Positions 9,271-63,517 of a stretch of DNA of 64,000 nucleotides are shown one piece after another (position 1 is the stretch's first letter; the number at the start of each line of letters is the position of its first letter). The stretch is from an uncultured Ruminococcus sp. (lineage in GTDB: Bacteria > Bacillota > Clostridia > Oscillospirales > CAG-272): contig CAZUPI010000007.1 in the NCBI GenBank assembly GCA_964621755.1, forward strand, positions 7,016 through 71,015, given 5' to 3'. The notes under the pieces are model-generated. The model was not told where the DNA came from, did not search any database, and was given only the letters and a program-made list of their open reading frames with translations. The position numbers and the translations under genes are program-made.

Positions 9271-9308
9271 CCTCCTGTTGTAGACTATATATAGTCTACA
9301 ACAGGAGG
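9271..9308. terminator. Bidirectional intrinsic terminator between convergent genes
   Basis: Perfect palindrome CCTCCTGTTGTAGACTATAT/ATAGTCTACAACAGGAGG followed by CTTTTTG. Confidence 0.8.
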
Positions 9309-9327
9309 CTTTTTGTCACTGTCTTTT

Positions 9328-9861
9328 TTATTTGATTCCGTATTTTTCTGCGAACTGTGAGACAGTTTTAACCCAGTGTTCGTAAGTAAAACTCTTCTTG
9401 ATGTCGGACAAATCGATATATGCCCCGTTCACAATAGCCTGTTCCGCGGCTTCGGCTATCATCGCTTCTTTGGTATAGTTGTCGCTCAGGGATTTTTCAA
9501 ATTCCATGTTCATTTTTTGGCTGACGCCTTCCATTGCTCCTATATAGAACAAGCTTTCGCGCCCCAGTAAATCTCCGATTTTTTCAAAGCATTCTATCCC
9601 TTCACGGATATCCGCAATACTTACCACACGTTTGTATTCCATAATTTTTTCACCTCCTGATAAAATATTGTCAACCGTTGTGCGCAGAATCTCTGCGAGG
9701 TCGAGCAGAATTCCTACATCGGGAATCGTCTCTCCACGCTCCCACTTTGATACCGCTTGGTAGGATATGCTAAGCCGTTCGCCCAGCTCGTTCTGCGTCA
9801 AACCGATATGTTTGCGTAGCATGGCTATCTGTGCACCCACTTTTTTTGAATCAACAGTCAT
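9328..9861 (-). CDS. XRE-family HTH transcriptional regulator with an uncharacterised C-terminal domain
   Basis: The start was chosen at MTVDSKK, with AAGGGGG 6 nt upstream. HTH: LTQNELGERLSISYQAVSKWERGETIPD. Confidence 0.8.
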   Translation of the reverse strand: MTVDSKKVGAQIAMLRKHIGLTQNELGERLSISYQAVSKWERGETIPDVGILLDLAEILRTTVDNILSGGEKIMEYKRVVSIADIREGIECFEKIGDLLGRESLFYIGAMEGVSQKMNMEFEKSLSDNYTKEAMIAEAAEQAIVNGAYIDLSDIKKSFTYEHWVKTVSQFAEKYGIK

Positions 9862-10036
9862 CTGATTCCCCCTTGTTAAAAATTTCAAAGCGCTTCGATA
9901 TCTATATTTTACAGATAAAAAGCCCCTTTTTCAATGACCGCGTGAGTTATATTTTAAGGGAAAACTAAATCAAGAGGTTAGTCCTCAAAAACTTAAAATT
10001 GACGCTTGATAGTGTGGCGGTTACGAAAATACAATA

Positions 10037-10070
10037 AAATCTCCCCCAAACCTGAGTCGGAGGAGATTTT
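10037..10070 (-). terminator. Intrinsic terminator downstream of the SLH protein gene
   Basis: AAAATCTCC...GGAGATTTT stem-loop, with T-rich sequence following on the minus strand. Confidence 0.6.
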
Positions 10071-10102
10071 ATTGTTCATTAATACTATACGATTACGCTA
10101 TA

Positions 10103-11830
10103 TCAGCCGTTGTAAACCGAGATATGGCTGTTCAGTTCGGTAACAAGTTCGATAACTGCAGTGGAAGTTGCACCGCTATCTTCGAGAAGGGCGCTTGCTT
10201 CTTCGTAGTGTTCAATAAGACCGCTGTCATTTGCTGCAACACCGCTGTCGATGAGCATCTTTGCCTGAAGTACGAGAGCTTCAAGAAGGGCACGTTCCGC
10301 ATCAGTTGCAGGAGATTCCGCGATGATGTTTGCGTAGTTGCTGCTGGAAACGGTTACGACGTAGGTGTTCGCGCTGTTGTAAGCTTCGGTCATTGTGACC
10401 TTTCCATCAACAACAGCTACACCGGAAGCTACAGTGGTCTTCTGACGACCGGAACCATAGTAGATACCAACTGTTACATCTTCGAGTGCTTCGGGAATAT
10501 TTTCTACAACGACATCGGCAGAGCCTTCAGCGAAGGTAGCTTTGATGACTTCGGAACCATCATAAGCAGGCTTGATGTAAATACCGTCGAAGGTATAAAC
10601 GTAAGTATTGTCGGGCATGATGTAGGTGATGGAAGTAACCCTTTCACCAACAAGTTTGGCAAGCTCAGGAAGGTTATCCCATCCAACGATATGGGAGTTG
10701 CAAAGACTGTCTTCACTTACGTTGAAGGAAACTTCCCAAGGCTGTACCCACATGCTCTGGAGATGTTCCATACCAACTTTAAGACCGGATTCGGTTTCAA
10801 GGATAATACCTTGGATATTTGCGTTAATGATCCAACCTTCATCCGAACGGTTGGTGCGGATATATGCGGTGGAGTTTTCAGTTACGTTGATTTGATAATC
10901 ACCCCATGTGGAACCGGTCTGAAGTTCAGCGGAGGCGTCTGTTACTGTTTCAACGATGTTGAAATTGGTGGCAGAATATACTGCTTTTCCATCAACAATC
11001 GAAACGGTCTTATACTGTTCGGGTGTACTTCTTGCAAGCTTGAATGTGGGATTAATTTCGAGATATGCATCATAATCATCCGCAGAAACAGCAACATTTA
11101 CATTTTTTACACCAAGAATATTGTAACCGTCCGTATTTTCTTCGGTGTAATTCGTGTACATGTTATCATTGAAGCTACTATACATTTTTACGGTAGCAGA
11201 AGTAACGCCGTCAATGCCGTAATATTCGGTTGTGCTGACGTCTCCGGAGTAGTATTCAGCATAAGTCAGCGTAGCAGTGCCGTAAACGACATCATGCTCA
11301 CTGATGTCAAAGGTCAGTGTATCGTAAATGTTGTCCAGAATTGTGATGCCTTCCGCACGTGTCAACTGAGAAGTAGGGTTAAGTAAGCCGGCGGTAGTGC
11401 CGTGGACATAATCGCCCGCAACCAGAGCAGCTACAGCATTTTTGGCACCTTCGGAAATCTCAGCAGCATCGCTGAACTTGGAAAGAGCGGCAATATCTGT
11501 ATCGGTTGCCGTAAGTCCCAGAACATCAGCAACAATGGTCATCGCTTCTTCACGGGTGAATATGCCGTCTTCATCTTCTTCCGTATTTTCAATAGGCGAC
11601 TTTGAGATTTGATTCAGAAGAGAAACAAACTGCGCGCGGTCCATTGCGACATCCGGACTGTAATGTACAACGCCATAATCGTTCATCCAACCGCTGTCAA
11701 CAAAGAACTGCAAGGATTTTTCAGCCCAGTGGCCGGCAATATCCGTGGCAGGAGCCGCGGCTGCGGATGCTGCCACACACATACTTCCAACCAGCAGTGC
11801 ACAGAAGAGAGTGTTGATTTTCTTGTTCAT
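10103..11830 (-). CDS. Secreted cell-wall-anchored protein: signal peptide, SLH repeats, and an uncharacterised C-terminal region of about 400 aa
   Basis: Signal peptide MNKKINTLFCALLVGSMCVAASAAAA. SLH-like blocks are DIAGHWAEKSLQFFVDSGWM...DRAQFVSLL and FSDAAEISEGAKNAVAALVAGDYVHG...LTRAEGITIL. It contains IDGVTSAT, which resembles the flavinylation motif. Confidence 0.8.
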   Translation of the reverse strand: MNKKINTLFCALLVGSMCVAASAAAAPATDIAGHWAEKSLQFFVDSGWMNDYGVVHYSPDVAMDRAQFVSLLNQISKSPIENTEEDEDGIFTREEAMTIVADVLGLTATDTDIAALSKFSDAAEISEGAKNAVAALVAGDYVHGTTAGLLNPTSQLTRAEGITILDNIYDTLTFDISEHDVVYGTATLTYAEYYSGDVSTTEYYGIDGVTSATVKMYSSFNDNMYTNYTEENTDGYNILGVKNVNVAVSADDYDAYLEINPTFKLARSTPEQYKTVSIVDGKAVYSATNFNIVETVTDASAELQTGSTWGDYQINVTENSTAYIRTNRSDEGWIINANIQGIILETESGLKVGMEHLQSMWVQPWEVSFNVSEDSLCNSHIVGWDNLPELAKLVGERVTSITYIMPDNTYVYTFDGIYIKPAYDGSEVIKATFAEGSADVVVENIPEALEDVTVGIYYGSGRQKTTVASGVAVVDGKVTMTEAYNSANTYVVTVSSSNYANIIAESPATDAERALLEALVLQAKMLIDSGVAANDSGLIEHYEEASALLEDSGATSTAVIELVTELNSHISVYNG

Positions 11831-52913: not shown

Positions 52914-53483
52914 TTACCCAATTTCTTCATACGTCATCTTTTCCAAATCCACGCTGTATCCTCGACCGGGCTTGGGCTGCCATTCATAGCGGTTTTTATT
53001 TTTCTGAGGAAATAGCTTTGCCATAACTGCGGCAATGACACCGCCATGCGTGAGAATCAGTGTGTCACGTCCCGTTTGCATGATTTGCTCAACGGCATTC
53101 AGCACACGCGCTTTCATAAGATTGCCGCTTTCACCGCCCGGTGCGACGTTTTCTTCGTTATCACCTGTAATCCACTTTATATAATCGGGGGCTTCTTTCA
53201 ATTCCTCATAAGAATGCATCTCGAACACACCAAAGTCCATTTCTGCGAGGGCAGGGAGAACTTCATGCTCCCTCTTACCGTACAGAATGAATAATGTTTG
53301 CTCGCAGCGCTTCATGCCGCTGGAAACAATCCGAAAACCTTCCACGCTGGGATAGGAGACCGACTCTTTTAGCGCGTTCAATTCGGCAATTCCGTTTTCT
53401 GAAAGCTCCTCATCGGTCGCACCGCAATAGAGATGTCGTTCGTTGGCATTTGTTTTGCCATGTCGTATTAAAATAATTTTCAT
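52914..53483 (-). CDS. cobC: Alpha-ribazole phosphatase (histidine phosphatase family)
   Basis: IILIRHGKTNAN RHG motif and a THGGVI second His. Operon context with cobS, cobU and cobT. Confidence 0.8.
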   Translation of the reverse strand: MKIILIRHGKTNANERHLYCGATDEELSENGIAELNALKESVSYPSVEGFRIVSSGMKRCEQTLFILYGKREHEVLPALAEMDFGVFEMHSYEELKEAPDYIKWITGDNEENVAPGGESGNLMKARVLNAVEQIMQTGRDTLILTHGGVIAAVMAKLFPQKNKNRYEWQPKPGRGYSVDLEKMTYEEIG

Positions 53484-53484
53484 C

Positions 53485-53862
53485 TTATTTTAACCTCTGT
53501 GGGAGTCCGCAAAATATTCTTGTTACCTCCTCAGCTTCACGCGAGAGATAGATGCACAACCTTCCCGTTTCCTCACGCCATGCGCGCATGTCCGCACCCA
53601 GTGGAACGACTCCACAGAAGATGTCGCAGCAAATCAAAACTGAATTCCGCCACACCTCTGCATGGTTTTGAAACGCCGTAAGCGCGTGGATTCCGTTCCG
53701 TACACAGAATAAGGTGTACTCCTCAATTCGATAGATACATGGCTTGCCAAAGTCAATGTGCCCGCTTTCCGTACAAGTGCAGATATCCTCCTTGGCGAGT
53801 TTATAATGATTTTGTGCGTATTCCAACTTTCCCTGATACGCACCGCCGAGAATCAGATTCAT
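53485..53862 (-). CDS. Short, degenerate CobU-like protein (125 aa)
   Basis: N-terminal LILGGAYQGKLEYAQ aligns to the CobU P-loop but lacks GK[ST]. The C-terminal VLICCDIFCGVVPLGADMRAWREETGRL aligns to the CobU C-terminus. The middle region is absent. Confidence 0.6.
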   Translation of the reverse strand: MNLILGGAYQGKLEYAQNHYKLAKEDICTCTESGHIDFGKPCIYRIEEYTLFCVRNGIHALTAFQNHAEVWRNSVLICCDIFCGVVPLGADMRAWREETGRLCIYLSREAEEVTRIFCGLPQRLK

Positions 53863-53874
53863 AGTAAGTATACC

Positions 53875-54624
53875 TCATAAAAAAGCAAGTACAACAATGC
53901 CGCAAAGCTCGCCGATTGTCAGCGCGTAGCCGGAAATATCCCCGGACATCCCATCCAGTGACTTAAAAGCACGGTGCAGCGCCAAACCATACCCGAGATA
54001 AACCGCCGGAACCACCAGCCCACCTATCCCGAGAATCAGAAATCCAAGAACAGCTGTTGCCAACATCACTGCTGCAAACCATATGATGTGTGATTTTTTT
54101 ATCCCTTTGCGGTAAGCGCCTGCATATTCGCTTGTCGAAATGGGGCGCAGCAGCGTGACTGCCAATCCGGCCACAGCACGGGAGGCGATGGGAATAAAAA
54201 TCAACGCGAGCAGGCGGGTTCCTTCATGAAAGGAGGCAAATGCCGCAAACTGTATCATTACGATCAAAGCGCAGGCAATTACAGCAAAGGATCCGGAGGT
54301 GGGGTCCTTTAAAATACGCCTCCGTTCTTCGAGGTCGCGCCACGATTTCACAGCATCGGTCGTGTCGAGAAAGCCGTCAAAGTGCATGAATCCGGTTACA
54401 AGAAAGGGATAAGCACATAAAACTGCCGCCGCAAGCAGGTAAGGGACTGGCAGCAGCTTCAGCAGATACGCCAAAACTGCCCATATAGCGCCAATCCACG
54501 CGCCCACAATCGGGAGAAACAGCGTCATCAACGGACGAGCCTCCTCATCCCAGCCATGATACGGAGACGGAATTGCACAAAACATGGAAAATGCCATCAT
54601 ACAGCCGCGCAGATATTTTTTCAC
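53875..54624 (-). CDS. cobS: Adenosylcobinamide-GDP ribazoletransferase (cobalamin synthase)
   Basis: AFSMFCAIP...HFDGFLDTTDA motif; multi-pass membrane protein of 249 aa. Confidence 0.9.
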   Translation of the reverse strand: MKKYLRGCMMAFSMFCAIPSPYHGWDEEARPLMTLFLPIVGAWIGAIWAVLAYLLKLLPVPYLLAAAVLCAYPFLVTGFMHFDGFLDTTDAVKSWRDLEERRRILKDPTSGSFAVIACALIVMIQFAAFASFHEGTRLLALIFIPIASRAVAGLAVTLLRPISTSEYAGAYRKGIKKSHIIWFAAVMLATAVLGFLILGIGGLVVPAVYLGYGLALHRAFKSLDGMSGDISGYALTIGELCGIVVLAFL

Positions 54625-55169
54625 AGGTCAAATTCCCCCTTATAAGATATGACATTTCCGGCGCACAACTCAAGTACAACGTCACAGACCTCAGCAAGTG
54701 CGCGGTCAAGCGACGCCAATCCACGGCGGTAGGCTTCGGTATATTCGTCATAGCGTGCGGCGTCAGAATAAAGATAATCCGAAACAAAGACCGCATTTTC
54801 CACTTTCGCTGAGAATGCAAGAAGGTCCGCCTTTACTTTTTCAAGAGCACTTTTATCAAGCTCCCAGTTGTTTTCCGCAGGATACATCTCGTTCATCAAA
54901 AGGGCGGTTATGCTATCAACGAGAAAAACGCCGTTTTTGTCAACTTCATCCGTTACCACGGTCGGAAGATTCCGTCCGCATTCGAGCGTCTGAAAACCCA
55001 TTCCACGGCGGTTTTCAACATGACGCGCGATTCTTTGCCTGTCTTCTTCATCAGAGGGAATCATCGTGGCGACATAGTAAAGATTGCCGGAACCGGCCAG
55101 TTTCACAGCGGCAGTCTGCGCAAAATTCGACTTTCCATTTTTGCACCCGCCGGAAATTAGTATTTTCAT
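54621..55169 (-). CDS. cobU: Bifunctional adenosylcobinamide kinase / adenosylcobinamide-phosphate guanylyltransferase
   Basis: ILISGGCKNGKSNFAQ P-loop and YVATMIPSDEEDRQRIARH with the candidate guanylyl-His. It overlaps cobS and cobT. Confidence 0.85.
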   Translation of the reverse strand: MKILISGGCKNGKSNFAQTAAVKLAGSGNLYYVATMIPSDEEDRQRIARHVENRRGMGFQTLECGRNLPTVVTDEVDKNGVFLVDSITALLMNEMYPAENNWELDKSALEKVKADLLAFSAKVENAVFVSDYLYSDAARYDEYTEAYRRGLASLDRALAEVCDVVLELCAGNVISYKGEFDL

Positions 55170-56605
55170 TCTGCACCGTCCTCTTTGACTGTAAAAGAGT
55201 CTTTTTTTCGGATTTCCTCAAGATAGCTGTCGTCGATTCCAGCTTCGTCAAATGTTGCCATATCGTTCATCACGGCACAGGCTGCGTCGATAACTTGAAA
55301 GGCAATTGGGCATCCGCTTCCCTCGCCGAGACGCATTCCCAAGTTCAGCATGGGAGAAAGTCCCAATTCCCGCATGGCAACGCGATAGCCGATTTCATAT
55401 GACGCGTGGGAGGGAATCAAATACTCTCGAACCGTCGGACACAGCTTTACCGCAAGCAGCGCAGCTGTGACAGAGATAAATCCATCCATCACAGCCGGAA
55501 TTTTCGCGGAAGCGGCGCCAAGAAATGCACCCGCCATTGCCGCAATATCCAGTCCTCCGACTTTTGACACGACATCCAGCGGGTCTTCCGGATTGGGTGC
55601 GTTGACCGCAATTGCCCGCTCAATTACCTGAATTTTATGTAAATAACCTTCATCTGTCATACCGCCGCCTCGTCCCGTTACCATGCGAACCGGTTCGCCG
55701 GAAAAAACGGCAAGTACTGCTGCAGAAGTAGTCGTATTACCTATCCCCATTTCTCCTACACCAACAATGTTGTATCCCTCATTTGCTGCGCGAATCGCCA
55801 GTTCCGCACCGATTACCATAGCTTCAACCGCCTGTTTGCGCGTCATAGCGGGGACCTTTGCGATGTTTTGCGTGCCGTAGGAGATTTTTTTGTGGATGAC
55901 AGCAGGCTCATGAATATCAGCATTGACGCCTACATCACAGACCCAAAGTTCGCACCCGAAGTGATGTGCCAAAACTGCGGCCCCGGTTTTGCCGCGCACC
56001 AGATTTATGGTCTGCGCCAGCGTCACAGACTGTGGCGTGCAGGCGACCCCTTCTTCCACTACGCCGTTGTCCGCCGCAAAAACAAGCAGGAGTCTTTTGT
56101 CGATGGCGTTGTGAATTCGTCCGGTGATTCCGGCGAGCTGAATGGAAAGTTCCTCAAGCGTTCCAAGGCTGCCTGGGGGCTTGGCAAGCTGAGCCTGCCG
56201 TTTGCGTGCCGCATCCATGGTATCGGAATTAAGAAAAGTGATGGATGAAAGGATTTGTGTGAGTTTTTCTTCGTTATTCTTACATGCTATATCCATATCT
56301 GCGTTGGTTTCTGTATTGGAGGTATCTTTTGTTTCTCTCTTTTGTGCTTTTTTCATTTCATTCCGCCGCCGTTTGGAACGGATTCGCTTTTCACGATTCA
56401 ACTTGATGCGGTCGTCTTGGCGCGGGGGCTTGATTCCCGCAGCTTCAAGGGCGCGCGGCCACGGTCCGAGGAAGGCTTTGATTGCGCTCACTTCGTCATT
56501 GGCAAAATCCGAACGCTGCGGATAGCGTGTATCTCCATGCTCGCGGAGAAATTTATGCTTTTTGCACAGGATGTCAATGCAAGTCTCGCGGGTGAATTTC
56601 GCCAT
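55166..56605 (-). CDS. cobT: Nicotinate-nucleotide--dimethylbenzimidazole phosphoribosyltransferase CobT with an N-terminal extension of about 110 aa
   Basis: The CobT core starts about residue 112 (LAKPPGSLGTLEELSIQLAGI, GEMGIGNTT). The start was chosen at MAKFTRETC (AAGGAGG RBS). Confidence 0.85.
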   Translation of the reverse strand: MAKFTRETCIDILCKKHKFLREHGDTRYPQRSDFANDEVSAIKAFLGPWPRALEAAGIKPPRQDDRIKLNREKRIRSKRRRNEMKKAQKRETKDTSNTETNADMDIACKNNEEKLTQILSSITFLNSDTMDAARKRQAQLAKPPGSLGTLEELSIQLAGITGRIHNAIDKRLLLVFAADNGVVEEGVACTPQSVTLAQTINLVRGKTGAAVLAHHFGCELWVCDVGVNADIHEPAVIHKKISYGTQNIAKVPAMTRKQAVEAMVIGAELAIRAANEGYNIVGVGEMGIGNTTTSAAVLAVFSGEPVRMVTGRGGGMTDEGYLHKIQVIERAIAVNAPNPEDPLDVVSKVGGLDIAAMAGAFLGAASAKIPAVMDGFISVTAALLAVKLCPTVREYLIPSHASYEIGYRVAMRELGLSPMLNLGMRLGEGSGCPIAFQVIDAACAVMNDMATFDEAGIDDSYLEEIRKKDSFTVKEDGAE

Positions 56606-56630
56606 GTACCAGTCGCCTCCTTCGCGGAAC

Positions 56631-56895
56631 AAAAAAAGCGCTTTCATTGCCGATAAAAGACAACAAAAGCGCAACAATTCAAAGCCATACGGAACGAGCG
56701 CTCACGTATGACTTAAAATGGCTGCACTTTTCATGTCCAAAATGTACCGAATGATTCGGTATGCCAGTGCAATATGGTAAGTATTCCGACTTATGCGGTC
56801 CATCCACAATCACGGTAATGACGGTTGCGACGGAATTTCACCGAACTTCCCTCTAATCCGTATGGTATACGGAACCATATTGCATATTATTTTAG
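56631..56895 (-). promoter_or_regulatory. Cobalamin riboswitch with terminator expression platform
   Basis: The minus strand reads AGAGGGAAGTTCGGTGAAATTCCGTCGCAACCGTCATTACCGTGA...ATAAGTCGGAATACTTACC (B12 box). This is followed by GCGCTTT...AAAGCGC plus T7 just before the cobT RBS. Confidence 0.8.
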
Positions 56896-56902
56896 TTTTG
56901 TC

Positions 56903-56931
56903 ATTATAGCATATCCTGTCGAAAAAGTCAA
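56903..56931 (-). promoter_or_regulatory. Promoter TTGACT-17-TATAAT for the cobT riboswitch operon
   Basis: Minus-strand hexamers at 56931..56926 and 56908..56903. Confidence 0.65.
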
Positions 56932-57029: not shown

Positions 57030-59624
57030 TTACGGTAAAGCTTTCCCCTCCCGACTGAGTTTTTTCAGTATCGCTCTGATTTCCTCATCTACCGCGAGTA
57101 TTTCTTCGCGGAATTCGCGTGCAGACAACCGCAAAACGCCTGAACGCAGCGCCTGCAGCTGGATAAGTCCATCTGAGGTAACTACACGCACCGAGAAATC
57201 CTTACCAATCTCACGGATCAGTTTTTCAATGTAGATGTCTCCCAGCTCGCCCTCTTTGGTGTAAACAATGTGAAGTCCGTGATAGTCAAACTTTCGCTCT
57301 ACAGAACATTTTACGTTGTATGCGTCAAATACCACAATCATATCGCGGCCGGTATATGCCTGATAATTTGCCAGTATGTCACACAGACTTTGCCGTGCAT
57401 GTTCCAGGTCGTTTTCGGCGATGGCGGCAAGCTCGTCCCAGGCGAAAATTACATTGTATCCGTCTACAATATATAAAGATTTTTTGTATTTTACATTTCC
57501 AGCATTTGCTATCTGCGGCTTCTTCGGGCCACCGTAGACCTTTCTCTTAATGGGGCCAAATTCGCGTTCCATGATAGACTCAAGTTCTTTTTCGTCAATG
57601 TTAAGGTTCTTTTGGATAACCTGCGGCTCCGCAAGCTGTATTTTGTCTTCTTCCGTAGCAGATTCCAGATTCAGCCCCTCAAGATGCATGTACTGCGGAA
57701 CCATCGCCCACGGGACAATAAACCCCGCGCCGTGCGAGCAGAAAACCGAATCCGGCGTATTGTCAATATCCGCTTCGGGATTATATCGGAATTCGCTAAG
57801 AACTTCATCGGTGTTATGGCAGGGAAAATATCCCTCAACCCTGCATGAAAATTTTCCTTTCCCATGAGTATAGGCTGCCACTTCGCGTGCATGTCCACCA
57901 ATGGCCGCAACGGGCGCTCTTCCCACAAGAACGGAGGTGCCGACATCCGCTTCATGTTCGTCAAACGTTCCAAATCGCGCGAGAATATCCGATATCGCGC
58001 GTCCAACATATTCGCCGGGGAGTTCCAATCGGAAGGAATAATACGGCTCCAGAAGAACCGTTTTCCCATGTGACGAGGCGGTCATCAAGCCCTGTCTGAC
58101 TGCGCGGTAAGTGGACTCCCGAAAATCGCCGCCTTGCGTATGCTTGAGGTGCGCACGACCGGAAACCAGAGTGATTTTCATATCCGTAATCGGAGAACCG
58201 GTCATGACGCCAAGGTGCTGTTTCTCCTCAAGATGGGTGAGAATCAGTCTTTGCCAGTTTCTCTCAAGAAAGCTCTCGTTGCAGACCGTATCAAATACAA
58301 GTCCGCTCCCCCGTTCAAGAGGTTCCAAAAGAAGATGCACTTCCGCATAATGACGCAGCGGCTCAAAATGCCCTACCCCCTCGACTGGCTCTGTGATGGT
58401 CTCTTTATACATAATTCGTCCGTCGTCAAAGCTGACATCTACACCATACCGTTCGGATATCAGGCTGACAAGTACCTCTGTCTGCACCTGCCCCATAACC
58501 TGAGCGTGGATTTCCCCAAAACGTTCGTTCCATACGATATGCAGAAGCGGCTCCTCCTCTTCAAGCATTTGCAGCTTCGGAAGAATCGTCCGGGCGTCCA
58601 CCTCTTTTGGCAGGGTGATGCGGTAGTTCAGCACGGGCTCAAGGTACGGTCTTCCGGATGATTCCGCTTCTCCAAGCCCCTGACCAGCATAGGTTTTGCT
58701 CAATCCGACAACTGCACATACATCTCCCGCCTGAGCGGTTTCGAGACTATCGAATTTGGCACCGGAGTACATGCGTATAGAGGTGATTTTTTCTTCAATC
58801 GGTTCGCTTGCCCCAAGGGGAAGATAAGAGAGAGGCTGCCTGACCGACAGTGTCCCACCAGTCAACTTCATATATGTGAGCCGTGCCCCGTTTTTATCAT
58901 GTGCGATTTTGTACACCCGTGCTGCAAACGATTCCGAAGCAGTAGAATATTCCTGTTCAACAGTATACCGATCCAAAGCGTCGAGAAGCTGCTCAATCCC
59001 TTCGAGCTTTAAACCGCTGCCGAAGAAACAGGGAAACAGCCTGCGTTTCCGTATCAGACTGGCAATATCCTTATCTTCAACTGTGCCGCTATTCATATAT
59101 TTTTCAAGGATATCTTCATCGGTCATTGCGATTTGCTCATCACGGTCTGCCGCATCACGGAAATCGATACATCTGTGGTCAAGTCCGGCGGAGAGTCCTC
59201 GCATGATTTCGCGTTCATCGCACCCTGCAAGGTCCATTTTTGTCACAAAAATAAAGGTTGGCACGCGGTAGCGTTCCAGCAAATGCCAAAGTGTTTCCGT
59301 ATGCGCTTGCACACCTTCTGATCCGCTGATAACAAGTATCGCATAATCCAGAACCGACAAGGTTCGTTCTGTTTCCGCAGAAAAGTCGACATGCCCAGGA
59401 GTATCAAGGAGCGTTATCTGCAAATTCCCAGTTGTGATGATTGCCTGCTTGGAGAAAATGGTGATACCACGTTCACGCTCGAGCTCATGTGTGTCGAGGT
59501 ACGTATTTCGCCAGTCGACTCTACCGGGCTTTTTTATTTTTCCGGTTGTATATAAAAGCGCCTCAGACAGAGTCGTTTTACCCGCGTCCACATGCGCCAA
59601 AATTCCGATAACCTGTTTTTTCAT
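57030..59624 (-). CDS. Translational GTPase (TetM/EF-G-like, five-domain) fused to a C-terminal Rae1/YacP-type NYN ribonuclease domain
   Basis: G1 AHVDAGKTT, G3 DTPGH, G4 TKMD, and blocks collinear with ribosomal-protection proteins to about residue 640. Residues 716-864 (nt 57033..57479) read LYIVDGYNVIFAW...MIVVFDAYNV...IVYTKEGELGDIYIEKL...VVTSDGLIQ, collinear with B. subtilis Rae1/YacP. Confidence 0.85.
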   Translation of the reverse strand: MKKQVIGILAHVDAGKTTLSEALLYTTGKIKKPGRVDWRNTYLDTHELERERGITIFSKQAIITTGNLQITLLDTPGHVDFSAETERTLSVLDYAILVISGSEGVQAHTETLWHLLERYRVPTFIFVTKMDLAGCDEREIMRGLSAGLDHRCIDFRDAADRDEQIAMTDEDILEKYMNSGTVEDKDIASLIRKRRLFPCFFGSGLKLEGIEQLLDALDRYTVEQEYSTASESFAARVYKIAHDKNGARLTYMKLTGGTLSVRQPLSYLPLGASEPIEEKITSIRMYSGAKFDSLETAQAGDVCAVVGLSKTYAGQGLGEAESSGRPYLEPVLNYRITLPKEVDARTILPKLQMLEEEEPLLHIVWNERFGEIHAQVMGQVQTEVLVSLISERYGVDVSFDDGRIMYKETITEPVEGVGHFEPLRHYAEVHLLLEPLERGSGLVFDTVCNESFLERNWQRLILTHLEEKQHLGVMTGSPITDMKITLVSGRAHLKHTQGGDFRESTYRAVRQGLMTASSHGKTVLLEPYYSFRLELPGEYVGRAISDILARFGTFDEHEADVGTSVLVGRAPVAAIGGHAREVAAYTHGKGKFSCRVEGYFPCHNTDEVLSEFRYNPEADIDNTPDSVFCSHGAGFIVPWAMVPQYMHLEGLNLESATEEDKIQLAEPQVIQKNLNIDEKELESIMEREFGPIKRKVYGGPKKPQIANAGNVKYKKSLYIVDGYNVIFAWDELAAIAENDLEHARQSLCDILANYQAYTGRDMIVVFDAYNVKCSVERKFDYHGLHIVYTKEGELGDIYIEKLIREIGKDFSVRVVTSDGLIQLQALRSGVLRLSAREFREEILAVDEEIRAILKKLSREGKALP

Positions 59625-60017
59625 ATTCGTCCTTATTCAAACAAAACGTAAATTCGATTGAAAGATGCTTTTGAAAAGCACCTCCCCGAACCCTTTTATA
59701 AAAAACATTCAAACAATAAATTAAAGTTATTCCGAAAACTTATCGAACTCACTTTAAACATAATTATATTATTATATCACGGACATGCTGTAATTTCTAC
59801 GATAAAAATGTAAATGCGTGAAGATTTCTATAAAATATTGACCGAATATTCTGACGGGAATTGTAGGAGTTCAGAATATCGAAGAAGAGAAATACAATAT
59901 TGTTTGATTTCCATAAAAAGGAAGGAACCATTGCAAATTTATGAAATCCATGCTATAATAGCGGCAGAAGATGTGTTCTGCAAAAATTTATCAAATAATA
60001 TACCAAATGGAGGCAGC

Positions 60018-62522
60018 ATGATTTACTACATAGACCCAATACACGGTATGGATTCGGCGGATGGGACATTCCCTGAAAAGGCGCGGCGCAGCTATACGGA
60101 TATAGCACTGCAGCCCGGTGACACGGTTCTGTTTAAGCGCGGCAGCTTCATCCGTGACTGTCTGTACCGCAAGAGTGGTACGCCTGAAAAGCCAATTACT
60201 TACGGTGCATATGGAGAGGGCGAAAATCCGGTGTTCTGCGGCTCAATTGATGTGAGCGCTCCTGAAAAATGGACGGAAATCCGTCCGAATGTGTGGAAGT
60301 ACACCGACTCTTTGCCAAGCGAAGCATGTAATTTTATTTACGATAACGGCAGAATGGGCGCGACCCTGCGTTGGGAGGAAAATCTGCTATCCGCACAGGG
60401 GGATTGGTACGATAGCCGCATGGGTTTACGGGAGAACGGAAAAAAGCCTGTGGAGGAAAAAGTTCTACTGTACTCTGAGGGGAATCCCGGAAAGGTTTAT
60501 TCTCATATCGAATGCGCAGTCTGGGGGCAGCGTAACCTGTCGCAAAACACAAACTGCACGACCTGCGAAGACTTGTGCTTCTTCGGCAGCGGCGTTCACG
60601 CACTGTCGGGCGGCGGCGACCACATCACAGTCAGACGGTGCTCGTTCTGCTTTATCGGCGGCGCAGTCTGGAACCGTCAGTTGAAAATCCGCTTTGGCAA
60701 CGCCATCGAATTCTGGAACCATGGTGAGGATATCCGAATCGAGGACTGTTATTTCAACAATATTTACGATTCCTGCATCACACATCAGGGAGCCGGAGAT
60801 TGTGAACCTGCGAAAAATCTGGTCATGCGCCACAACCTGTTTGTCAATTATGGTATGGGCGCGTATGAAGGACGAGACCGCATGTCAATTGCTTCCGCGT
60901 TTAACGACAACATCTGCCTGTATGCGGGCGGCGGCTTTTCCGCCTTCGGGGACACTTTGCCGAGAAATTCTGAAATCTATCCGCAGCCCATGGGACATCA
61001 TTTGTTTATGTGGAGAATCCCCAAGCCGACTGAGAACGGCTGTCTTGAGGTTGCCGGAAACCTCTTCTATGAGGCCACGGGCGCCGCAATGTACGCCATC
61101 ATCTCTCCCGAAGCGGACGCACAGATGTACTTGCATGACAACCGATATTATACTTCAAACAAAACGCTGCTGACTCATATTCGTGGAAAGAGTTACTCTC
61201 CTGATGATTTTGATACATATCTTTCCGAATACGGCGAAGCGGGTGCAAAATACCAAAGTCTCGACATCGCCGCCGAGGTTGAACAGTGGTTCAAGGAAAC
61301 TGGATGCGGCAGATACGGCGCAAAGCTGTTCACAGATAAGCTTCCGCCCCAGCGGTATTTTGTCGGCTCTACGGAAAAGGACGCACTGTCATATGCGGTC
61401 GGCGAGGACATGTGGTTCCGTCTCACATTGACAGAGGAGGGAACCCCGGTGACTTGTCCGAACTTCAAGTATGTCTGCCGCGGCGATGACGGCAAACACA
61501 GCGAAGGTGTTGTGGACGGTACCAGCGGCAGATTTGAGCTTCATACCTCAGTCGATGTGCCGGGTTATGTCCACTTGATTGTAACTGCATGCGACGAAAA
61601 CGGCAAACCACTGCGGGGATACGACGTGTTTGAAGGCGGTGCATGTGCCGGATTTGACGAAATCAAGACTTCTCAAAAAGAACCAGACGATTTTGACACA
61701 TTCTGGAATCGCGTCATCCATGACGAGCTTGACCCAGTTGCTCCCGTGACGATAGAAAAGCACGAATTCCACTGCGGCGACCCGGGAGATATCGTGTACG
61801 ATGTGAAAATTGCGTGCCCTGGCCCCAATCCGGTCTCGGGATATCTGCGTATGCCGCGAAATGCGGGAGAAAAGTCCCTGCCCATCGTGGTCGGTTATAT
61901 GGGTTATAATGTATCGAGCGCCAATATTCCCACAAAATCCGAAGCCATCCAGCTTAATATCAATCAGCACGGTATTGTAAATGGAGAAACATTCGAATAT
62001 TATCAGCAGCTTTTTGGAACGACGTACCGCGACTTCGGCTTCAATCGAGAAGAAAATAAGAATCCCGACACCGTATACTTCAAATACATGGTTCTTCGCG
62101 CTTTGCAGGCGATTCGCTACTGCAAGACTTTGCCGGAATGGGACGGACAAAATATCGCAGCACGCGGGGGAAGCATGGGAGCATTTCAGGCCACTTCAGC
62201 TGCGGCATGGGATAAGGACGTCACATGCCTCGAAATCCAGATTCCGTGGATGTGCGATTTGCACGGCATAGAAACTGGCAGGCTCGGCGGATGGCGTCCC
62301 GCATGCGATAAGGGGCTCGATTATTACGATACGGTCTTTCAGGGCCGCCGCGTCACCTGTGACACCTATCTTTATGCAGGACTTGGCGACTATATATGCC
62401 CGCCGTCCGGTGTAACCGCACTTTTCCACAGCATAAGCGGGAAAGCGAGCCTTACTATGATGCAGAATAAAACCCACCCATATACCGCACCGGAATGCAG
62501 TACGTATATGAGAAAAAAATGA
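60018..62522 (+). CDS. Right-handed beta-helix domain protein fused to a CE7-like acetyl esterase (AXE1/cephalosporin-C deacetylase) domain
   Basis: The start was chosen at MIYYIDP (GGAGG RBS). The C-terminal DFDTFWN...GGSMGAF (GxSxG)...GLGDYICPP...KTHPY triad pattern is typical of AXE1. No signal peptide. Confidence 0.7.
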   Translation: MIYYIDPIHGMDSADGTFPEKARRSYTDIALQPGDTVLFKRGSFIRDCLYRKSGTPEKPITYGAYGEGENPVFCGSIDVSAPEKWTEIRPNVWKYTDSLPSEACNFIYDNGRMGATLRWEENLLSAQGDWYDSRMGLRENGKKPVEEKVLLYSEGNPGKVYSHIECAVWGQRNLSQNTNCTTCEDLCFFGSGVHALSGGGDHITVRRCSFCFIGGAVWNRQLKIRFGNAIEFWNHGEDIRIEDCYFNNIYDSCITHQGAGDCEPAKNLVMRHNLFVNYGMGAYEGRDRMSIASAFNDNICLYAGGGFSAFGDTLPRNSEIYPQPMGHHLFMWRIPKPTENGCLEVAGNLFYEATGAAMYAIISPEADAQMYLHDNRYYTSNKTLLTHIRGKSYSPDDFDTYLSEYGEAGAKYQSLDIAAEVEQWFKETGCGRYGAKLFTDKLPPQRYFVGSTEKDALSYAVGEDMWFRLTLTEEGTPVTCPNFKYVCRGDDGKHSEGVVDGTSGRFELHTSVDVPGYVHLIVTACDENGKPLRGYDVFEGGACAGFDEIKTSQKEPDDFDTFWNRVIHDELDPVAPVTIEKHEFHCGDPGDIVYDVKIACPGPNPVSGYLRMPRNAGEKSLPIVVGYMGYNVSSANIPTKSEAIQLNINQHGIVNGETFEYYQQLFGTTYRDFGFNREENKNPDTVYFKYMVLRALQAIRYCKTLPEWDGQNIAARGGSMGAFQATSAAAWDKDVTCLEIQIPWMCDLHGIETGRLGGWRPACDKGLDYYDTVFQGRRVTCDTYLYAGLGDYICPPSGVTALFHSISGKASLTMMQNKTHPYTAPECSTYMRKK

Positions 62523-63517
62523 ATATGAAACGTGAAACAATAAAACAAGCTCTCGCGCATAAAGAGAGCGGCAAAGTTCCATATACTATCATATTAGCGC
62601 CGGAAAGTGTAGAGCCGTATGCGCCAAAGCTGATTGAACGGTATGCAAACGACAAAATCAAAGCCGACTTAGAAGCGGAAAAACTCAATTTAATTGAAGC
62701 TTATTCGCTCGATATTGGAAATTGCATGCTTTATGTCAATTGTCCGTGGTGGGGATGGCACTCCTTCTCCGAGGACTATTCCGCCGAGGAGGCGCCGTCT
62801 CGCTTGCCCTATACGTATGGTTATGGAAGGCTATGAAGGCGCGTTCGAACATTGGAAATACCTCCGTGAAACCTATGACGCATACCTTCTTGTCACGATT
62901 TGGGGCAGCCGCTTTGAAAAAGCTTATTTTGCACGCGGACTTGAAAATTTCCTTGCAGATATTGCGGGAGCACCGGAATTCGCAGCCGATCTGCTGAATA
63001 TGATTATCCGCAAAAATATGGTAATGCTCGAAAACTTTCTTGTGTCCCCGCACATTGACGGCATTCTGCTAGGGTCGGACTGGGGAACACAGCGCGGTAT
63101 GCTTATGTCTCCCAAAGCGTGGACAGAACTGATACGTGACGGAGAACGGCGCGAATATGACTAATACACAATATGAAAAAAGATGTTTTTGTCCATTCAT
63201 GCGGCAAAATCGACGCCATCATTTTTGATTTGTGTGAAATCGGAGTGGATGCGCTCAATCCTGTACAGCCGGAGTGTATGGATATCGCAGAGCTGAAGCG
63301 CACATATGGCGATAAACTCACATTCTTTGGCGGTATCAGTAAACAGCAGCCTCTCCCGAACGGATCACTGGACGAGGTGCGTCGTGAAACGCGCCGAATC
63401 ATCGAGATGATGAGCGTAAACGGATACATCACCGCTCCTTCGCAGGAAATCATGCCGGATGTACCGTTTGAAAATCTGATCGCACTGATTGATACTGCGC
63501 GTGAGTATTATGATTGA
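62519..63517 (+). pseudogene. Uroporphyrinogen-decarboxylase-like (URO-D/MtaA-type) family gene split into three frames
   Basis: The pieces 62519..62836, about 62826..63164 and about 63161..63517 read through as one URO-D-like protein (...GILLGSDWGTQRGMLMSP...VFVHSCGKIDAI...GVDALNPVQPE...). The frameshifts are at about 62822-62840 and about 63159-63163. Confidence 0.7.
62822..62840 (+). repeat. Imperfect short tandem duplication TATGGAAGGC/TATGAAGGC at the first URO-D frameshift
   Basis: Deleting the 10-nt first unit restores ...LPYTYGYEGAFEHWKYL... in a single frame. Confidence 0.75.

Follow-up and report, generated by a model that had tools for sequence, protein, structure and literature searches.

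Proteins in which a translational guanosine triphosphatase (GTPase) of the EF-G/TetM type and an NYN endoribonuclease of the Rae1/YacP type form one polypeptide were described in Clostridia as the 'Tet-NYN_YacP' fusion (Atkinson, 2015; PMC4342817), and the same fusion was later noted by Matelska et al. (2017; PMC5499597). The fusion sequences in Additional file 8 of the former study include those of Ruminococcus albus 7, Eubacterium eligens, E. rectale, Butyrivibrio proteoclasticus, Clostridium cellulolyticum, C. lentocellum, Lachnoclostridium phytofermentans, Ruminiclostridium thermocellum, and Desulfitobacterium hafniense (PMC4342817). This article concerns a further member of this family, an 864-amino-acid (aa) protein (the window protein) encoded on a 64-kb stretch of DNA from an uncultured Ruminococcus sp. 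(the window; contig CAZUPI010000007.1, positions 7,016 to 71,015). The architecture is not new and will come as no surprise to specialists, the family having already been flagged by comparative genomicists, and the novelty implied by the original prediction, a model's reading of the sequence, goes too far; its remark that no characterized example is known does hold for the full-text literature searched, in which experimental work on the fusion was not found. What is added here to the published descriptions is a linkage to ylmH and evidence against a tetracycline resistance function, and recent work on Rae1 makes the fusion timely and directly testable.

The nuclease half of the fusion is related to Rae1 (YacP) of Bacillus subtilis, which is a free protein of about 170 aa, whereas the NYN domain of the window protein is covalently tethered to a translational GTPase. 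Rae1 cuts messenger RNA (mRNA) 12 nucleotides (nt) upstream of the A-site codon, at the stalled ribosome's tail, and it has been suggested that it may require collided ribosomes (Deves et al., 2025; PMC12407103). The earlier model in which Rae1 acts in the A site came from docking of the crystal structure and was revised in 2025 by the same laboratory, which also reports ongoing structural studies of how Rae1 interacts with the ribosome (PMC12407103); entry into the A site, which the original prediction had taken as established knowledge, is therefore outdated as a premise. Collision-induced tagging by transfer-messenger RNA (tmRNA) depends on Rae1, which makes tmRNA substrates on collided ribosomes (Tetreault et al., 2026; PMC13622287).

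In the window, the fusion gene is a single unbroken open reading frame (ORF) of 864 codons, and within it Pfam detects GTP_EFTU, EF-G domains II to V, and NYN_YacP (Table 1). The G1, G3, G4, VDGYN, GDIYIEKL, and TSD motifs all lie where they had been placed, and the gene is confirmed as a genuine join of an EF-G/TetM-type GTPase to a Rae1-type NYN nuclease, as first proposed. The ORF is an ortholog of the clostridial 'Tet-like GTPase-NYN_YacP' fusion family. Its product is 50% identical to the R. albus 7 member, with which it is collinear across 870 columns, and it has the same domain order as the published fusions (e.g., R. albus 7 YP_004106010 and Acetivibrio thermocellus ATCC 27405 YP_001036467). 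The published fusions also have in common with it both signature loops (GHFEPLRHYAEVH and GRAHxKHTEGGDFR), the NYN catalytic residues, and a similar motif for the linker helix. The window protein differs from them as a new sequence that comes from an uncultured, Oscillospiraceae-like bacterium of the gut, and it has TKMD instead of NKMD in G4.

The fusion is a large, old, and widespread family in Clostridia. In a search of 5.8 billion proteins the same Pfam architecture was found in all of the 120 best clusters (65-100% identity, 848-894 aa), and in an exhaustive search clustered at 50% identity about 135 of the best 150 representatives had this architecture and were 820-1010 aa long, most of the 150 matching the window protein from residue 1 to about residue 850 at identities down to 41%. 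Related loci were taken as the best 80 of at least 563 relatives obtained from a scan of one genome per GTDB species. All 80 match the window protein over essentially its full length; their hosts are Oscillospiraceae, Acutalibacteraceae, Ruminococcus, and unclassified Clostridia known from metagenome-assembled genomes, and their gut sources include ruminant, rabbit, horse, and human. An intact single ORF is present in 76 of these loci; of the other four, one reaches a contig end, two differ in the start codon, and one (L023) has its ORF split. The fusion gene occurs once per locus examined, across families of Clostridia, and is also found in finished genomes of cultured species. Among the unfused matches of the representative search, only one looks like a genuine nuclease-less variant: locus L083 (5001-6956) encodes a 651-aa protein that ends after the C-terminal mini-domain described below, with no NYN gene nearby. 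P0217 was rejected as an unfused relative, being a contig-end fragment of an 869-aa protein, and so was L084 (5001-7705), in which a frameshift within the linker leaves a 719-aa GTPase ORF and a separate 138-aa NYN ORF. These two loci, L083 and L084, place the breakpoint between the modules in the linker and indicate that the GTPase module occurs alone at least rarely.

The GTPase half retains the EF-G five-domain fold, the G motifs, and the catalytic His. The P-loop AHVDAGKTT occupies residues 10-18, DTPGH residues 74-78, and TKMD residues 128-131. In an alignment of 35 close homologs (alignment A1), the P-loop, the switch I sequence RGITI, DTPGH, which holds the catalytic His78, and [N/T]KxD do not vary, and in a wide-family alignment of 136 representatives, which are 41-54% identical to the window protein, G3, G4, and most P-loop positions are 96-100% conserved, the less conserved P-loop positions being H11 (89%) and A14 (86%). 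The first residue of G4 is Thr in the clade of the window protein and Asn (NKxD) in 91% of the wider family. The Pfam match to EF-G_D2 (residues 233-314) reaches 23.8 bits, under the gathering score of 27, and that to EFG_III spans residues 329-399; a Foldseek search with the whole model returns EF-G and TetM structures at expectation values (E) of about 1e-50 to 1e-43, those for EF-G being about 1e-50. Domain IV, by homology the part that would enter the 30S A site, is the most conserved domain, with a mean majority fraction in the 136-sequence alignment of 0.66 versus 0.48-0.58 for the other domains. Its tip carries two family-specific, near-invariant loops, GxGHFEPLRHYAEVH (416-430) and GRAHLKHTxGGDFR (489-502), most residues of which are 85-100% conserved in the same alignment. 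In EF-G, the GGRGQ segment of domain IV loop I contacts the codon-anticodon helix. The corresponding loop of the window protein is 4 residues shorter than that of Thermus thermophilus EF-G and reads GHFEPLRHY, without GGRGQ, whereas a His in its loop III aligns with a histidine in the equivalent loop of EF-G (GSYHEVDSS). A further difference from EF-G is the C-terminal extension.

That extension begins with a 45-aa mini-domain (residues 605-650), which in the AlphaFold model consists of a helix, a β-hairpin, and a second helix at a predicted local distance difference test score (pLDDT) of 60-88, and to which nothing corresponds in TetM or EF-G where these align; many homolog matches stop their first matched stretch near residue 649. 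In the region formed by residues 602-650 (57675-57821, minus strand), C602, C629, and H647 are invariant in close homologs and 86-93% conserved family-wide and may form a metal-binding site; H603, also in this region after domain V, is invariant among close homologs, and W639 is conserved. Because the mini-domain follows domain V, the GTPase module extends to about residue 650 and the linker comprises about 65 aa (651-715), rather than ending at about residue 640 and being followed by a linker of about 75 aa as first thought. The linker has a pLDDT below 50 for residues 655-713 and, outside its one helix, a mean majority fraction of only 0.14-0.17 in the 136-sequence alignment. The helix is modeled at residues 678-689, within the conserved motif (D/E)EKELExIMEREFGPI (residues 676-698). 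E680, L681, M685, R687, E688, F689, G690, and P691 are invariant in alignment A1, and in the wide family E680 is conserved at 91%, I684 at 89%, and G690 at 83%; a related motif occurs in R. albus (EELMAIFERTYG) and in other species among the Additional file 8 sequences consulted. This helix may be a docking or regulatory element. A linker that is predicted to be disordered and is unconserved save for one helix is the pattern expected of a tethered nuclease and not of a rigidly docked domain.

The nuclease domain gives a 141.9-bit match to Pfam NYN_YacP (PF05991; gathering score 24.6, E = 2.5e-41), and with the C-terminal 156 residues as query the sole PDB match is B. subtilis YacP/Rae1 (5MQ8/5MQ9, E = 4e-25). 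Residues 717-860 align with Rae1 residues 3-146 (5MQ8) at 39% identity over 143 residues with one gap per side, and D721, D767, D796, and D818 pair with Rae1 D7, D53, D81, and D104. These residues fall within the motifs VDGYN (720-724), FDAYN (766-770), GDIYIEKL (795-802), and TSD (816-818), are invariant in alignment A1, and are 98-99% conserved in the wide family. The active site of NYN_YacP proteins consists of these four aspartates together with a family-specific GYN motif (Matelska et al., 2017; PMC5499597), so the claimed resemblance to Rae1, catalytic acidic residues included, is borne out. The two proteins share the NYN_YacP fold, the GYN motif, and the four catalytic aspartates, and presumably are alike in being ribosome-associated. 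The Pfam match ends at model position 142 of 166, the last 24 or so positions being missing; the AlphaFold model predicts helices at 835-845 and 847-861, with basic residues visible in the sequence, and in NYN_YacP proteins the nuclease core is described as being followed by two C-terminal helices with conserved basic residues (Matelska et al., 2017; PMC5499597). The catalytic residues of both halves of the window protein are thus intact, and purifying selection acts on both halves across the large family.

Table 1. Coordinates of the fusion gene, its parts, and associated features (window positions, except for the ylmH examples, which are numbered within their own loci).
Feature	Position	Strand	Basis
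Complete ORF, 864 aa, EF-G/Tet-like translational GTPase and Rae1/YacP-type NYN endoribonuclease	57030..59624	-	stop codon 57030-57032; frame unbroken
G domain, residues 1-225	58950..59624	-	Pfam GTP_EFTU 5-221, E = 1.3e-50
Domains II and III, residues 226-400	58425..58949	-	Pfam EF-G_D2, EFG_III; model superposes on EF-G/TetM structures
Domain IV, residues 401-520	58065..58424	-	Pfam EFG_IV 402-516
Domain V, residues 521-604	57813..58064	-	Pfam EFG_C 523-604
C-terminal mini-domain, residues 605-650	57675..57812	-	model secondary structure, conservation
Flexible linker, residues 651-715	57480..57674	-	low pLDDT, low conservation
Conserved short helix within linker, residues 676-698	57531..57599	-	alignment and model
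Rae1/YacP-type NYN endoribonuclease domain, residues 716-864	57033..57479	-	Pfam NYN_YacP 719-857
ylmH homolog, examples	L045 8568-9308; L032 8563-9309; L066 8504-9253	same strand as fusion	Pfam and PDB alignment
Promoter-like site TAGAAA-17-TATAAT, extended -10 TG	59771..59799	-	upstream of fusion ORF; sequence motif
Cobalamin riboswitch RF00174	56759-56894	-	Rfam 42.5 bits (gathering score 31.5); immediately downstream of fusion gene
Second promoter-like site	56903-56931	-	downstream of fusion stop codon, ahead of cobalamin riboswitch
cobT-cobU-cobS-cobC salvage operon	55166-56677, 54621-55169, 53875-54624, 52914-53483		headed by cobalamin riboswitch

It is, on balance, somewhat probable that the fusion is a factor-site-targeted, GTP-gated nuclease of the Rae1 type that acts on stalled or collided ribosomes. 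The GTP-bound form would dock at the ribosomal factor-binding site, where the family-specific tip of domain IV would probe the A site and select ribosomes that are stalled, or whose translocation is blocked, like the trailing ribosome of a collision. The tethered NYN domain would then cut RNA near that ribosome, the likeliest substrate being mRNA that lies outside the A site, on either the entry or the exit side or between two ribosomes that have collided; GTP hydrolysis would release the factor, and the truncated mRNA would send the ribosome to trans-translation or to ribosome quality control (YlmH/RqcH). A disordered linker of 65 residues could span several tens of angstroms, far enough to get to where mRNA enters the same ribosome, and in a disome its reach could include the mRNA between the entry of the trailing ribosome and the exit of the leading one, a segment that would lie near the reported cut of free Rae1. 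A translocation-blocked trailing ribosome would, moreover, be a natural substrate state for an EF-G-like factor.

A role in ribosome rescue or mRNA surveillance, already among those first suggested, is the best reading of the family, and it is supported by the action of Rae1 on stalled and collided ribosomes and by an operon linkage in a sister clade. In 28 of the 80 related loci (among L023-L078), the fusion gene is directly followed on its own strand by a gene for a YlmH homolog of about 247 aa. The gap, recorded in 27 of these loci (all except L028), lies between a 13-nt overlap and +50 nt in 18 and at 129-1881 nt in nine, the genes often overlapping or being 2-11 nt apart. The product matches Pfam YlmH_RBD (34.6 bits, gathering score 23) and, weakly, S4, and aligns over residues 22-243 with B. 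subtilis YlmH (PDB 8S1P chain V, E = 1.2e-29), a ribosome-associated quality-control factor (PMC11317155). The fusion proteins of the ylmH-linked loci are 55-97% identical among themselves. What lies around the pair varies among four loci examined (a gene for a MobA-like NTP-transferase-domain protein, DUF975, a hydrolase with RNase Y, and MMPL), and in three of the four the next gene downstream is on the opposite strand; the two genes thus behave like one unit, conserved although its surroundings change. The very distant members P0160 and P0269 lie on contigs too short to show their gene context. In one locus only (L066), an RNase Y gene (rny; 9291-10829, minus strand) lies convergently just downstream of the fusion-ylmH pair.

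Known systems offer functional analogies to such a nuclease. SmrB of Escherichia coli and Cue2/NONU-1 of eukaryotes are mRNA endonucleases activated by collisions, which are recruited to stalled or collided ribosomes and create substrates for rescue, and Hbs1-Dom34, in which a translational GTPase delivers an A-site probe, illustrates that a GTPase can deliver a stall-sensing module. The likeness goes no further, for SmrB, Cue2, and NONU-1 have the SMR fold, which is unrelated to NYN, and in none of these systems are nuclease and GTPase one polypeptide. Tentatively, and with rather less confidence than is placed in the nuclease reading itself, a GTPase-gated stall or collision nuclease may represent a third bacterial solution besides free Rae1 and SmrB, working together with YlmH quality control and trans-translation; the EF-G-like sensor would detect a translocation-blocked or A-site-vacant ribosome and position the Rae1 domain on the mRNA.

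Several points weigh against a GTP-gated nuclease of stalled ribosomes. Ribosome binding and an RNA substrate are attributed to the family by homology. The linkage to ylmH is confined to one subclade, whose fusion proteins are 53-61% identical to the window protein, and may therefore count as few independent events, and neither ylmH nor any other translation gene lies beside the fusion gene in the window or in its closest relatives (65-80% identity). Finally, because the nuclease-less variant L083 exists, the GTPase module may function by itself.

The main alternative, though an unlikely one, is that the nuclease cuts 16S or 23S ribosomal RNA (rRNA) in maturation, ribosome inactivation, or turnover, the GTPase delivering it to the decoding center or the subunit interface. 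A target in rRNA was proposed by Atkinson (2015; PMC4342817), stand-alone yacP lies in an operon with mrnC and rlmB and was originally suggested to act in rRNA/tRNA processing (PMC5499597), and domain IV and the mini-domain are expected by homology to lie beside h44 and H69; the present data do not discriminate between RNA substrates. The sole characterized YacP-family enzyme, B. subtilis Rae1, nevertheless cleaves mRNA in a way that depends on translation (PMC12407103, PMC13622287), the 65-aa disordered tether would put the nuclease away from the binding site of the GTPase body, and the ylmH linkage points to the rescue of stalled translation complexes.

It is very unlikely that the NYN domain is carried into the A site to cut the A-site codon in the manner of RelE, which was the model first put forward. 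In the ribosome complexes of EF-G and TetM, domain IV itself occupies the A site. Because domain IV would fill this site, the NYN domain cannot share it at the same time, and in the present family domain IV is intact and, as noted, conserved above all other domains. Factors of the EF-G family do reach the A site, and the Rae1 crystal structure could once be docked into it, but that model has been withdrawn by its own authors in favor of a cut 12 nt upstream (PMC12407103). The long disordered linker sets the NYN domain apart from the GTPase body and, as modeled, appears to fit a tethered nuclease better than an A-site RNase.

A tetracycline ribosomal protection protein with an accessory domain is a highly improbable identity for the fusion, even though several database sources give it Tet names, the family being widely labeled 'TetM/TetW/TetO/TetS family tetracycline resistance'. 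The window protein is indeed collinear with the ribosomal protection proteins and EF-G, as originally noted: TetO and TetM (PDB 3J9Y, 4V6V) have the same five-domain EF-G fold, align in one stretch over residues 5-602, and share the DFR that follows domain IV loop III, and the best NCBIfam model is tet_protect. The score of 404 bits is, however, far below the tet_protect cut-off of 775, and those for the Tet subfamily models are likewise all below cut-off (TetM/W, 281 versus 1100; Tet(M), 230 versus 1420), as are those for the EF-G models (TIGR00484, 275 versus 659 bits; PRK12740, 311 versus 583). Identity to TetM is 30%, the C-terminal helix of TetM remains unaligned, and the region of domains IV and V alone retrieves solely EF-G chains at E <= 1e-10, being closer to EF-G than to Tet proteins. 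In TetM, the Y-S-P motif of domain IV loop III (Y506-P509) dislodges tetracycline. An alignment with a TetM sequence that had been checked against PDB 3J9Y replaces the YYSPVS of this loop with AHLKHT, which is kept in the family. The window protein further differs from TetM and TetO in its added mini-domain, linker, and nuclease, and apparently in not being carried on a mobile element. The window is core chromosome, with metG, tatD, holB, a PSP1-domain gene, a tetrapyrrole-methylase-family gene, ackA, feoB, and the cobalamin salvage operon, and the Pfam families listed for its 64 kb include none for transposases, integrases, or conjugation; guanine-cytosine content is virtually equal in the fusion gene (49%) and the window (48%). 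The family appears vertically inherited, in a chromosomal, housekeeping-like setting without mobile-element genes nearby. Taken together, the scores below both Tet and EF-G cut-offs, the identity to TetM, the EF-G-like domains IV and V, and the core-chromosome setting indicate that the GTPase half is a separate EF-G-family paralog rather than a TetM-type protection protein. The tetracycline resistance label is not supported by these comparisons, and its use for the family would make resistome counts from gut metagenomes too high.

That the fusion shuts down translation as a toxin-like effector, another of the suggested roles, or as an antiphage abortive-infection effector would be compatible with a ribosome-targeted nuclease and is extremely unlikely here: PADLOC assigns the fusion gene to no defense system, antitoxin-like or defense-island neighbors were not seen, the gene is present once per locus across families of Clostridia, and relatives keep an extended -10 promoter (TGnTATAAT) close to the start codon, 20-40 nt 5' of the ATG. 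That a fault in assembly or sequencing joined two neighboring genes, a reading to which the draft assembly, the L084 frameshift in the linker, and the split ORF of L023 might be thought to point, is effectively refuted by the recurrence of the single ORF in 76 of 80 independent assemblies, in about 135 representative clusters, and in finished genomes of cultured species.

By hard-wiring a Rae1 domain to a factor-site GTPase, the fusion offers a defined entry point for cryo-electron microscopy and biochemistry. Among its carriers are abundant gut and cellulolytic Clostridia, of which some are genetically tractable. If true, the GTPase-gated reading would give a direct view of how a nuclease of the Rae1 type finds its way to ribosomes, and if the ylmH linkage is functional, mRNA cleavage at stalled ribosomes and 50S-based quality control would be combined in one operon.

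Within the window, the fusion gene has no functional neighbors, and a stand-alone yacP/rae1 was not found in these 64 kb or in the flanks of the 80 related loci. The fusion gene appears to be monocistronic, since a cobalamin riboswitch with a promoter-like site of its own lies downstream and the upstream gene, which encodes an AXE1-domain protein, is transcribed divergently. Rfam finds nothing in the 5' region of the fusion gene at gathering thresholds. A short upstream ORF of 14-23 codons (…LFKSIFQSNLRFV; …VLFKSIFQSNLRFV; 59636-59707, minus strand), which ends 12 nt before the fusion start codon and overlaps a weak hairpin, was considered as a regulatory leader and rejected as it is not conserved in relatives; it is probably fortuitous, being absent from relatives whose promoters sit 20-40 nt from the ATG.

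Some peculiarities were also observed among the other genes of the window. The cobT (DBI_PRT) ORF of the cobalamin salvage operon has an N-terminal extension of about 140 aa (56258-56677, minus strand), its phosphoribosyltransferase domain starting at residue 147; the extension gives a weak match, below the gathering score, to Pfam HNH_repeat ('homing endonuclease associated repeat', E = 6e-4) and could be a real extra domain or the product of an over-extended TTG start. Two genes downstream of the full-length cobU (54621-55169), a 125-aa ORF (53485-53862, minus strand), whose match to CobU is confined to the C-terminal third (profile positions 112-168), may be a truncated duplicate or a divergent paralog. 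On the plus strand, three consecutive ORFs (62495-62836, 62694-63164, and 63173-63517, in frames 2, 0, and 2), of which only 63173-63517 matches URO-D (the C-terminal part of the profile, 240-346), look like a methyltransferase/URO-D-family gene broken by frameshifts, which could reflect either a pseudogene or an error in the draft assembly.

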